From a virus (taxonomy: Duplodnaviria > Heunggongvirae > Uroviricota > Caudoviricetes), in the IMG/VR virus record IMGVR_UViG_2713896789_000009: 11,118 nt of DNA; one strand, 5' to 3'. Shown piece after piece: positions 4,250-5,212 of this stretch; position 1 is the first letter of the stretch; the number at the start of each line of letters is the position of its first letter. Both the position numbers and the translations under genes were made by a program. The notes beneath the pieces were generated by a model. It saw nothing but the letters and a program-made list of their open reading frames with translations. It was not told the DNA's origin and made no database searches.

Positions 4250-5212
4250 TTACCCCCTGAAGCCCGGCGGAATTTCAGTGTCCGGTTCAGAAATGTGATT
4301 CACGCAACGCTGCGCAGGCGAACGCCCCAGGCGGATAACCAGTTCATCCCATTTTTCCCGGAGTTTTGCCGGACTCATGATGTTTTTTACCCAGAACGAA
4401 TCCCGCTGGAGACGCCCAAACATTTCACAAATTTGTCTGTGAGTTCTGCCATCCAGCATCCGCATTGTGCGAACGTCATTGGCCCATGCTGTCCAGTTGG
4501 GTTCTTTCGGTCTAGTGATCTCGCCATCATAGCTGGCCGCCTGCTCGTAAAGACTCACGATTCGTCCCCAGATCCACTGTGCGCACACCAAATCTTCCTG
4601 ACTTCCCCACTGGCGTTTTTTCGCACTGAACACAACCGCGTCAGGGTGTCGGGTTAAAAAATCCTGTTCAGCCGTCTGCGGGTCCGGTTGCGAAGCGTCC
4701 GGACAAGAAGATCTTTTATCTGACGGATCAGGTTTTAATACTGACGGATCGGGGTCAATCATCGGCCCCCTAATCGGCAGTTTTTTATCAACAGTTGATC
4801 CATCAAAATTTGACGGGTCAACCGTTGAGGGGTCAATATTTGACGGGTCAACTGTTAACGGGTCATTTTTTGCCGGGCTAATTTTTCTTTTCGGTTTATA
4901 TGACTCACGCGCCGCCGCCGCAGCTGCTTCGAGTTTTTCCACATTAAGCCGATAGATATTGCTTACATTACGCCCACCGACCTTACGCTCTTCCTTCGTC
5001 AGCCAGCCCTCTTTCGCCAGTTCTGCAATAGCCGATTTCACTGTGGATTCACTTCTTGCACCGATCTGACGCCGGATAGTTTCAATGGCAGGCCATGACA
5101 CGCCCTCGTCATTGCTGTAGTCTGCAAGACGGGCCATAACCGCCACCCTGGATAAGATCATGCCGGTGAAGGCGCACCCTTCCCAGACAAGACCATGAAG
5201 CTTGCTGCTCAT
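4250..5212 (-). CDS. Phage replication initiator (lambda O-like: N-terminal HTH domain, repeat-containing linker, C-terminal domain)
   Basis: The N-terminus (ARLADYSNDEGVSWPAIETIRRQIGARSESTVKSAIAELAKEGWL) looks like a winged-helix replication-initiator domain. The linker encodes repeated DP(S/L)x(V/I)D peptides from DNA iterons, as in lambda O. Start could be the ATG at 5212 (GGGGG upstream) or the GTG at 5227. Confidence 0.7.
   Translation of the reverse strand: MSSKLHGLVWEGCAFTGMILSRVAVMARLADYSNDEGVSWPAIETIRRQIGARSESTVKSAIAELAKEGWLTKEERKVGGRNVSNIYRLNVEKLEAAAAAARESYKPKRKISPAKNDPLTVDPSNIDPSTVDPSNFDGSTVDKKLPIRGPMIDPDPSVLKPDPSDKRSSCPDASQPDPQTAEQDFLTRHPDAVVFSAKKRQWGSQEDLVCAQWIWGRIVSLYEQAASYDGEITRPKEPNWTAWANDVRTMRMLDGRTHRQICEMFGRLQRDSFWVKNIMSPAKLREKWDELVIRLGRSPAQRCVNHISEPDTEIPPGFRG
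4719..4866. repeat. Putative origin iterons inside the O-like gene: TGACGG(G/A)TCA-type repeats, four of them at exact 15-bp spacing, adjacent to an AT-rich tract
   Basis: Direct reading gives tgacggatca (4721), tgacggatc (4742), tgacgggtca (4811), tgaggggtca (4826), tgacgggtca (4841) and taacgggtca (4856). An AT-rich stretch follows at about 4863-4900. Confidence 0.7.

Follow-up and report, generated by a model that had tools for sequence, protein, structure and literature searches.

Does an array of short repeats inside an O-like replication initiator gene serve as the replication origin of the prophage that carries it? The window analysed here, an 11,118-nucleotide stretch of a Caudoviricetes virus (IMG/VR record IMGVR_UViG_2713896789_000009), raises this question. 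Its 15-bp repeats at 4788-4881, together with two GATCCGTCAG boxes and an AT-rich region at about 4703-4750, probably constitute the cis-acting origin of a lambdoid prophage's replication module, placed within the linker-coding part of the module's own initiator gene. Such a lambda-type arrangement had been proposed in an original prediction made from this DNA. Comparative evidence for it is strong, while the AT-rich tract that was named, the lambda O family and an adjoining helicase-loader gene do not hold or call for qualification. The lambda-type reading is well supported by comparison because selection acts at the DNA level, conservation is independent of reading frame, the repeats are linked to the initiator subtype, and the position matches that of the lambda and phi80 origins. 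The features are collected in Table 1.

Table 1. Coordinates of the initiator gene, its domains and the putative origin elements
Feature	Position	Strand	Basis or remarks
O-like replication initiator gene, 320 aa	4250-5212	-	ORF; RefSeq WP_000095675.1 'helix-turn-helix domain-containing protein'
N-terminal winged-helix DNA-binding domain, aa 1-104	4901-5212	-	Pfam HTH_36; recognition helix aa 55-67 predicted
C-terminal domain, aa 183-298 (about 178-298)	4319-4666	-	Homologous to phi80 gp15 C-terminal domain; pLDDT 83-96
C-terminal tail, aa 300-320, ..SEPDTEIPPGFRG	4253-4315	-	Matches C-terminal tail of host DnaT
Iteron array, six 15-bp units	4788-4881		Repeat searches; family-wide codon conservation of TGA...TCA positions
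Array core, weak	4795-4806		TTGATCCATCAA
Array cores, exact	4810-4821, 4825-4836, 4840-4851		TTGA-N4-TCAA
Array core	4855-4866		TTAACGGGTCAT
Array core, degenerate	4870-4881		TTGCCGGGCTAA
Conserved box 1, with GATC	4739-4750		+ strand TACTGACGGATC, coding strand GATCCGTCAGTA
Conserved box 2, with GATC	4718-4729		+ strand ATCTGACGGATC, coding strand GATCCGTCAGAT
Family-conserved AT-rich stretch	~4703-4743		3' of iterons in coding direction; ends in AAAAGATCTTC
AT-rich tract of the original prediction	4863-4900		Encodes YKPKRKISPAKN; 31% GC (4863-4901) vs 52% for the gene

The repeat array

At the middle of each 15-bp unit of the array lies a 12-bp palindrome, TTGA-N4-TCAA. A repeat search finds five in-register copies over 4788-4877, spaced exactly 15 nt apart, which bears out the strict periodicity originally claimed. 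Tandem Repeats Finder reports a period of 15 at 4788-4865 and 4809-4886, with 5.2 copies, and gives a better score to a period of 30 (4803-4877, 84% matches). Four TGA(C/G)GGGTCA repeats had been listed; those at 4811, 4826 and 4841 are exact, while the copy at 4856 (TAACGGGTCA) carries one mismatch. The two degenerate copies described alongside them are present as TGACGGATCA at 4721 and TGACGGATCG at 4742. With up to one mismatch allowed, TGASGGGTCA matches five times in the 11-kb window, all within 4721-4865; shuffled windows contain 0.83 matches on average and reach five in 1 of 200 shuffles. The 12-mer TTGACNNGTCAA occurs three times against 0.52 expected. The repeats are real, phased and not a product of chance, and they possess internal dyad symmetry, both TTGACGGGTCAA and TTGAGGGGTCAA matching TTGA-N4-TCAA.

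Symmetry is also seen on a larger scale. An inverted repeat (4790-4822 / 4824-4856) is 79% complementary, and the single strand 4700-4900 folds as one long hairpin (z = -4.76), as does the array of SfIV (z = -4.88). These folds are consistent with a reading in which the selected feature is a nucleic-acid structure, either a DNA hairpin or cruciform or a structure in the mRNA, and the repeats are not protein-binding iterons. That reading is very improbable, as it is the half-sites that are conserved, and bases at the stem centre are near random and not reverse-complement-paired. The dyad symmetry appears to be a by-product, because the array alternates TTGA and TCAA half-sites; lambda iterons also give dyad symmetry of this half-site kind (PMC7466680).

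Selection on DNA

Translated from the minus strand, the array reads NDPLT-VDPSN-IDPST-VDPSN-FDGST, so the DPS-type linker ascribed to the repeats is indeed what they encode. The six units correspond to residues 112-142 of 320 and lie inside the linker between the winged helix and the C-terminal domain, where the AlphaFold2 model gives residues 109-169 a pLDDT below 50, a prediction of disorder. A repetitive, predicted disordered segment is what would be expected if the repeats were a low-complexity peptide linker (DPSxx) and nothing else, devoid of any function at the DNA level. Codon usage points the other way. Among 413 units from 71 distinct arrays of Enterobacterales relatives, 373 have TCA as their last Ser codon, whereas TCA accounts for 16% of Ser codons in the remainder of these genes. 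TCT serves as the other Ser codon in 198 of 253 units, its share outside the repeats being 9%. As an internal control, neighbouring codon 4 has a near-random third base (0.17 bit). Synonymous positions are almost fixed inside the repeats and saturated in the adjacent domain; in the N-terminal domain the mean at third positions of conserved residues is 0.58 bit, and Asp31 uses GAC in 37 cases and GAT in 34. The unit positions conserved family-wide are T6 G7 A8 and T13 C14 A15, with free variation of the central residues of the unit (D/E/V; A/P/G/R/H/C) between fixed flanking codons.

The same DNA is moreover used in two reading frames. In full-length relatives each of two conserved DNA boxes is found in two frames. 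The box (G/C)ACCCNTCAGAATCTG encodes D/H-P-S-E-S-G in 70 cases and FTRQNL or LTLQNL in phiP27 L17 and a Citrobacter prophage, while TTAAGGGGTCAA is translated as VKGSM or LRGQN. Selection, as judged from these patterns, targets the DNA and not the peptide. The linker-only explanation is contradicted by the comparative data and is hardly credible. The locus offers a clear natural case in which a cis-acting DNA element dictates which residues make up a disordered protein linker, and does so even where the reading frame has changed.

Symmetry within the individual sites has its limits. The 4-mers at the site centre are strongly asymmetric family-wide (CGCA 41 vs TGCG 2), and their symmetric mass is below the shuffled expectation. 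Since the site centre is not reverse-complement symmetric, the case for simple symmetric recognition by a dimer extends no further than TGA/TCA. Apparent orientation flips do occur in the class A arrays defined below, with TTGACCCCTCAA vs TTGAGGGGTCAA and DPS vs EGS; they were dropped as proof of symmetric DNA recognition on account of this asymmetry.

Conserved boxes and the AT-rich stretch

Beyond the array lie two conserved boxes, each with a GATC. Of 69 distinct relatives, 50 carry the coding-strand 12-mer of box 1 unchanged, with third codon positions at 1.66-2.0 bits, and the GAT codon behind its GATC is 100% conserved. Box 2 is 21 nt away in the window copy and 24 nt away in most relatives. 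Four GATC sites fall within 4710-4800.

The boxes accompany the family-conserved AT-rich stretch, which has a GC content of 34% in the window and whose terminal AAAAGATCTTC junction is common to phi80. In 68 relatives the stretch downstream of the array has a median of 30% GC, compared with 53% for the whole gene and likewise 53% for the 40 nt on the array's upstream side; the downstream side is the lower one in 67 of the 68. The AT-richness is moderate only, and the stretch is not among the least stable DNA of the window. The 4703-4743 stretch is the best candidate for the unwinding element. The original prediction had placed an AT-rich tract on the array's other side, at 4863-4900. That tract was rejected as the unwinding element: its 40-bp duplex stability falls at about the 29th-36th percentile of the whole window (44% GC), and it is lineage-specific, most relatives not being AT-rich there.

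DNA-level conservation of this kind establishes a cis element, whatever its function. The repeats could be sites for the initiator or a host factor with another role in cis, such as autoregulation, handcuffing in copy-number control or Dam/SeqA timing, unwinding taking place elsewhere. The invariant GAT codon of box 1 and the cluster of GATC sites are in keeping with such a role. It is nonetheless quite unlikely, since the motif has no further copies elsewhere in the 11-kb window, promoter region included, and since the array, which adjoins the conserved AT-rich stretch, sits where the origin has been mapped in lambda and annotated in phi80.

Other site types add little to the putative origin. 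A scan of 4200-5900 finds no sigma-70 promoters arising from the TTGAC motifs. A single perfect DnaA box is present (4935-4943) and exact IHF sites are absent; DnaA and IHF sites were rejected as origin parts, their count being no higher than the window background and the codons beneath them not conserved.

The initiator protein

The gene that contains the array was originally described as an O-like replication gene. This stands in so far as the protein matches phrog_391, 'replication initiation O-like', over residues 1-320 (E 4e-115), and fails for the DNA-binding domain. The N-terminus matches HTH_36 (PF13730) at 27.9 bits against a cut-off of 25, and the initiator has no match to PF04492 (Phage_rep_O) at E <=0.1, in a test where phi80 gp15 scores E 6e-25. 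The initiator's DNA-binding domain, judged by these profiles, is outside the lambda O family. The AlphaFold2 model predicts helices at residues 43-50 and 55-67, a β-hairpin wing at 71-89 and a further helix at 91-104. Foldseek finds a resemblance to dimeric winged-helix regulators of the ArsR/MarR/PadR type that is generic, with all E values above 1e-3.

The C-terminal domain gives no informative match in Foldseek; in BLASTP it is 36% identical to that of phi80 gp15 over 124 residues (E 4e-26). The protein ends in a tail that shares about 15 of 21 residues with DnaT (PDB chains 2ru8, 6aep and 9zbt; phmmer), and a DnaT-like tail is common to about 45 of 80 family members.

Covariation of repeats and initiator subtype

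The first locus search returned identical copies only, and a protein search using just the N-terminus gave fragments for the most part. Relatives that are informative include the initiators of Shigella phages SfII/SfIV, of E. coli phages such as vB_EcoM-689R6, and phiP27 L17, which belong to the same family with N-termini 53-67% identical. They share the TGA-N4-TCA arrays of 15-bp pitch and the GATCCGTCAG boxes, and differ from the window in their C-terminal modules and loader genes. They also differ in the flanks of the sites, TCTGAC..TCAAAA vs xTTGAC..TCAAxx in the window, a difference that tracks changes where the recognition helix begins. Two classes can be defined on this basis. Class A N-termini (..KSKTTVSAAI.., the window included) go with xTTGA..TCAA units, while class B N-termini (..GESTVRTAI.., SfIV-like) go with TCTGAC..TCAAAA units. 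The more distant HTH_36 initiators Min27 O and ST64B Sb42 each have their own repeats in the same place, and mEp460, with an unrelated N-terminus, has different repeats at the equivalent position. Repeats thus differ among classes A and B, Min27, ST64B and mEp460. This would agree with cognate pairs of repeat and DNA-binding domain, though it amounts to few independent contrasts, A vs B counting as about one phylogenetic contrast. The number of array copies among relatives ranges from 2 to 7 in steps of whole 15-bp units, and this fits the expectation for iterons.

The module is widespread. Of 5426 complete E. coli genomes, 3265 have a match, and a near-full-length copy is present in 1514, ST131 strains among them. 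The same family occurs in the Shigella serotype-converting phages and in the Stx2e phage phiP27. The paper describing SfIV does not discuss an origin, and a search of the literature on this repeat sequence and on iterons in SfII, SfIV, SfV and Sf6 found nothing relevant. The features in Table 1 define, at the level of sequence, where the probable origin of a very common replication module lies, which is of use for prophage annotation, for interpreting read depth upon induction and for constructing mini-replicons.

Comparison with known origins

The likeness to ori-lambda, with its four iterons and AT-rich region within gene O, the O-some and the partner P, extends to several features. In both systems the iterons lie mid-gene, between the parts encoding a DNA-binding N-terminal domain and a C-terminal domain with a recruiting role. 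Every iteron is an inverted repeat, the AT-rich stretch is 3' of the iterons in the coding direction, and gain or loss of iterons makes the protein longer or shorter. The differences lie in the components. The lambda N-terminus is Phage_rep_O (PF04492) and that of the window HTH_36; lambda sites are 18 bp long and spaced 20-24 bp apart, whereas those of the window, being 12-14 bp long at a 15-bp pitch, abut; the AT-rich stretch has 22% GC in lambda; and lambda has its partner P, while the window copy has no P gene.

The phi80 gene 15/gene 14 module shares the C-terminal domain of its initiator with the window. Its gene holds four annotated gp15 sites at an equivalent place; an AT-rich stretch comes after them and, like that of the window, ends in CAGTATTAAAAGATCTTC. 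In contrast, the N-terminus of gp15 is of the lambda-O type (PF04492), its repeats are unrelated (..TTCCCGAAAACGG.., 21-bp pitch), the P-like gene 14 comes next, and gp15 ends in ..NTDWAYGVIR where the window protein has the DnaT-like tail. From these comparisons the position of the array is equivalent to that of the lambda and phi80 origins.

In-gene iterons are also predicted for gene 18 of P22 and of phage L, whose distantly related initiators have repeats of their own (PMC8022706). The proteins, repeats and pitch (~20-bp or 11-bp repeats) are different from those of the window, and a DnaB-type helicase, gp12, acts as partner. A link to the Rac oriJ replicon was rejected: in the MG1655 annotation the Rac initiator YdaU, followed by YdaV, is a DUF1376 protein, and the initiator of the window, an HTH_36 protein, has no match to DUF1376 among the Pfam profiles. 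This E. coli prophage array is a new example of the textbook lambda arrangement and not a new kind of system, and the understanding of lambdoid origin function is unchanged.

A proposed model for initiation

In the proposed mechanism, dimers of the winged-helix N-terminal domain would bind the abutting near-palindromes T(T/C)TGA-N4-TCAAA, and the resulting nucleoprotein array would destabilise the adjoining AT-rich stretch. The phi80-gp15-like C-terminal domain with its DnaT-like tail may then recruit the helicase-loader complex. The loader would be the phage DnaC-like protein in most near-identical copies and, in the window copy, would necessarily be host DnaC-DnaB.

A more elaborate version, which we regard as unlikely, combines a spiral filament of winged-helix dimers, firing coupled to Dam/SeqA through the invariant GATC boxes, and a tail (..IPPGFRG) that plugs into the host restart primosome or DnaC-DnaB. 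With 14-bp sites that abut at a pitch of 15 bp (~1.4 helical turns), the dimers may be forced into a continuous spiral filament. If true, the initiation complex would have a geometry unlike that of the lambda O-some, and direct coupling of the tail to the host could explain the many copies that have no loader gene.

Gene neighbourhood

In the window the initiator is directly followed by DUF977, as it is in 32 other near-identical copies, and no loader or helicase gene adjoins it. In 49 of 82 near-identical copies a DnaC-like gene follows, about 7 nt past the stop codon of the initiator. It is this count that led us to reject replacement of the phage loader by the DnaT-like tail, an idea that arose when proteins with the GFRG tail first seemed to have no adjacent loader.

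The missing loader or helicase gene means that the window copy may be inactive. The array could be derived from an origin and yet be silent here, as part of a cryptic remnant similar to Qin or Rac that has lost its DnaC-like loader gene. Annotation of E. coli EC958, which holds an identical initiator gene, fits this picture, in that its host prophage has a frameshifted integrase and other pseudogenes. We consider a silent relic a substantial possibility, short of probable. Against it, hundreds of genomes have the initiator ORF, array and boxes in intact and identical form, host DnaC could substitute for the lost loader, and an adjacent loader gene is also missing from about half of the wider family. 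A 16-kb circular 'plasmid' of this prophage region was set aside as proof of autonomous replication, as its initiator ORF is frameshifted. In other members of the family the N-terminus-plus-array module is followed by a range of partners: a lambda-P homologue in Erwinia (PF06992, E 3e-58), a DnaC-like and a DnaB-like gene in phiP27, and DnaC-like genes in other relatives.

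Repeat Array and Initiator Protein

The 15-bp-periodic repeats that the original prediction placed in the O-like replication gene are confirmed with minor corrections. A repeat search finds five in-register copies at exact 15-nt spacing and a 33-nt inverted repeat (4790-4822/4824-4856), and Tandem Repeats Finder returns period 15, with period 30 scoring better. Three of the four copies proposed, starting at 4811, 4826 and 4841, are exact, while that at 4856 reads TAACGGGTCA and does not begin with TGA. Each unit is centered on a 12-bp palindrome, TTGA-N4-TCAA. The motif TGASGGGTCA, allowing one mismatch, matches five times in the 11-kb window, all inside 4721-4865 and none elsewhere; shuffled sequences average 0.83 matches and reach five in 1 of 200 shuffles.

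Features of the array and its initiator
Feature	Position	Strand or basis	Detail
15-nt units of array	4788-4881	plus-strand reading	TCAACAGTTGATCCA, TCAAAATTTGACGGG, TCAACCGTTGAGGGG, TCAATATTTGACGGG, TCAACTGTTAACGGG, TCATTTTTTGCCGGG
Exact TTGA-N4-TCAA cores	4810-4821, 4825-4836, 4840-4851		
Degenerate TTGA-N4-TCAA cores	4795-4806, 4855-4866, 4870-4881		
AT-rich stretch	~4703-4743		34% GC
Initiator ORF	4250-5212	minus	320 aa from RefSeq ATG
Winged helix	aa 1-104	AlphaFold2	recognition helix 55-67, wing 71-89, helix 91-104
Linker	aa 109-169	AlphaFold2	pLDDT below 50
C-terminal domain	aa 178-298	AlphaFold2	confident
DnaT-like tail	4253-4315	minus	last 21 residues (..AQRCVNHISEPDTEIPPGFRG)

The whole initiator matches PHROG 391, "replication initiation O-like" (E 4e-115); in a Pfam search its N-terminal 100 residues match HTH_36 above cut-off and give no match to the lambda O family PF04492. 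In a structure comparison this domain gives weak, generic hits, to dimeric DNA binders with winged helices of the ArsR/MarR/PadR type. The coding strand of the array translates as NDPLT VDPSN IDPST VDPSN FDGST, and given the low pLDDT of this segment in the AlphaFold2 model (40 homologues as input), these DPS-type units encode the linker originally proposed for the initiator, which is predicted to be disordered. The very C-terminal end of host DnaT (PDB 2ru8, 6aep, 9zbt) matches the tail of the protein, with ~15 of 21 positions identical. The ending (I/V)PxGFR(G/S/T) is shared by about 45 of 80 family members and occurs with at least three different C-domain types, whereas in members ending W(E/D)xxL or NTDW.. 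a lambda-P homologue comes next instead. The tail is putatively a recruiting peptide, and apparently a portable one.

Selection on the DNA Sequence

The comparison covers 80 diverse relatives of the N-terminal domain from Enterobacterales, one genome per species, with SfIV and phiP27 added. In all full-length relatives, a 5-codon repeat directly follows the winged helix. Units defined on protein only (x-x-[DENVG]-x-S, at least two in phase) number 413 in 71 distinct arrays, and their codons are biased. The unit-closing Ser is TCA in 373 of 413 (90%), against 16% among the other Ser codons of these genes, and Ser at codon 2 is TCT in 198 of 253, against 9% elsewhere. The third base of codon 4, an internal control within the same units, is near random (0.17 bit), which rules out homogenization via slippage or gene conversion. 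Array length changes by whole units, from 2 to 7, with length differences of 5, 10 or 15 aa between close relatives (alignment including P0059, P0061, P0071, P0098, P0069 and P0075).

The 12-mer GATCCGTCAGTA, located downstream of the array, is the same in 50 of 69 genes. A second box, GATCC(A/G)TCAGAT, lies 24 nt past the first, a distance of 21 nt in the window; in two relatives the 7 aa (21 nt) that separate the boxes, and no more, are missing. Third codon positions of this stretch carry 1.66-2.0 bits, while in these genes those of conserved N-terminal-domain residues average 0.58 bit (Asp31, for example, is GAC in 37 and GAT in 34, and four-fold sites carry ~0.1-0.4 bit). The boxes are also conserved independently of frame. 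The box [G/C]ACCCNTCAGAATCTG is translated as D/H-P-S/P-E-S-G in 70 occurrences and as LTLQNL or FTRQNL in phiP27 L17 (Stx2e phage) and a Citrobacter prophage, both proteins being full-length, and TTAAGGGGTCAA encodes VKGSM in relatives from Erwinia and Edwardsiella but LRGQN in those from Kosakonia and Pseudocitrobacter. These alternative readings (FHPSESG versus VFTRQNL; VKGSM versus LRGQN) come from full-length relatives at phiP27 L17 (locus L166, 3001-3927) and three further loci (L165, L136, L159). Codon bias and two-frame boxes exclude, for practical purposes, a peptide-only explanation of the repeats, and on this comparative evidence the linker-coding region carries a cis-acting nucleic-acid element.

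As single strands, the arrays of the window (4700-4900, minus strand; z = -4.76) and of SfIV (locus L085, 2486-2676; z = -4.88) can each form a single long hairpin, which raises, as a minor alternative, the possibility that the hairpin itself is the selected feature. Alternating half-sites would be expected to fold in this way, however, as noted for lambda, and the hairpin is probably their by-product.

Four GATC sites (4710, 4726, 4747, 4797) fall within 88 bp, compared with 39 in the whole 11 kb, and the GAT codons that create GATC in the two boxes are 100% and ~95% conserved across the family. These features hint at Dam/SeqA involvement.

Comparison with Known Origins

The lambdoid origin, located mid gene O, comprises iterons, each an inverted repeat, together with an AT-rich tract (PMC7466680), and the distantly related initiators lambda O, P22 gp18 and L gp18 each have their own in-gene repeats (PMC8022706). 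The in-gene origin is a textbook principle, and the protein family is already labeled "O-like"; in the literature searched, there is no description of a repeat family with 15-bp pitch, TGA-N4-TCA cores, invariant GATCCGTCAG boxes and frame-independent conservation. The window array lies mid gene, like the annotated O iterons of lambda, and at the same relative position as the four annotated gp15 binding sites of phi80. The gp15 C-terminal domain is 36% identical to that of the window initiator (E 4e-26), but gp15 has a lambda-O-type N-terminus and a P-like partner. All three systems share the order iterons, AT-rich stretch, C-domain; window and phi80 also share the junction CAGTATTAAAA...GATCTTC, where lambda has AAAAGATTATTC.

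Repeats vary with the N-terminus of the initiator. Class A N-termini, the window included, have ..KSKTTVSAAI.. where the recognition helix begins, with xTTGA..TCAA units, while class B N-termini (..GESTVRTAI..; SfIV and most Enterobacteriaceae) have TCTGAC..TCAAAA units. In mEp460 the C-domain is as in the window, and both N-terminus and repeats are unrelated. Two more distant HTH_36 initiators, Min27 O (GGGGTGGGGCAGGAGCTGCCC x3; L171 1736-1801) and ST64B Sb42 (TGGTGCAGGAGATTCACTAGG x4; L172 1710-1820), have repeats in the same place, which are likely also origins. These unannotated repeats have 21-24-bp pitch and lie just past the winged-helix domain. Genes encoding this N-terminus and array are followed directly by a lambda-P homologue in Erwinia and Morganella (PF06992, E 3e-58), are accompanied by DnaC-like and DnaB-like genes in phiP27, and have IstB/DnaC-like ATPases as helicase-recruiting genes in other relatives. 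DNA-level selection, repeats that change with the N-terminus, replication context, the phi80/lambda position and array length changing by whole units together support, by comparison, the proposal of a probable lambda-type origin within its own initiator gene.

Winged-helix dimers would occupy abutting near-palindromic sites. The conserved positions of each 15-nt unit are T6 G7 A8 and T13 C14 A15, plus flanking T/A, and the site center is asymmetric (CGCA 41 versus TGCG 2), suggesting that recognition is symmetric only at TGA/TCA. The nucleoprotein complex would then open the adjacent AT-rich stretch, and the C-terminal domain would recruit the loader-helicase complex.

The AT-rich tract originally named, 4863-4900, is indeed 31% GC and encodes YKPKRKISPAKN, but its duplex stability is ordinary (29th-36th percentile of the 44%-GC window), and the 40 nt upstream of the array in 68 relatives have a median GC of 53%, equal to that of the genes. 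A conserved AT-rich stretch is instead found past the array when reading in the coding direction, starting at the first GATCC box, with a median of 30% GC in relatives (range 23-42%); in 67 of 68 genes it is less GC-rich than the flank upstream. Together with the lambda and phi80 layout, this likely puts the unwinding element across the array from the tract originally named, a placement we infer only, since the window's stretch is weaker than that of lambda (22% GC). A perfect DnaA-box consensus, TTTTCCACA, at 4935-4943 (+) within the N-terminal-domain coding region is probably due to chance, because its codons show no conservation in relatives.

Prophage Context and Distribution

The window belongs to a lambdoid prophage of the Qin/Rac-like type, as indicated by its sok antitoxin RNA (Rfam, 117 bits; 79-254 (-), adjoining hokD per the EC958 annotation) and DicF sRNA (Rfam, 76 bits; 8148-8199 (+)). 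Gene order runs from ydaS/ydaT-like genes through the initiator and DUF977 to hokD, rusA and Q; a 50-N run at 9454-9503 is masked sequence or an assembly gap. An initiator gene 100% identical to this one is present in E. coli EC958 and JJ1886, among many other strains; matches occur in 3265 of 5426 complete E. coli genomes, 1514 of them with a near-full-length copy.

A DnaC-like ATPase gene begins ~7 nt past the initiator stop in 49 of 82 near-identical copies (L003-L082), while DUF977 comes straight after the initiator in the window and in 32 further copies, a presence/absence polymorphism at 4209-4250. With no P, DnaC-like or DnaB-like gene in the window, this copy would either use host DnaC or be a non-firing relic.

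An E. coli from a dog carries a 15,977-bp circular "plasmid" (NZ_CP148542.1, L169); it consists only of a cI-cro-initiator-DnaC-like...Q-lysis prophage segment, and replicon typing assigned it no plasmid type. The molecule resembles a natural lambda-dv, but loss of 1 nt, perhaps a sequencing error, splits the initiator ORF in the CCCC run that lies immediately upstream of the first GATCC box.
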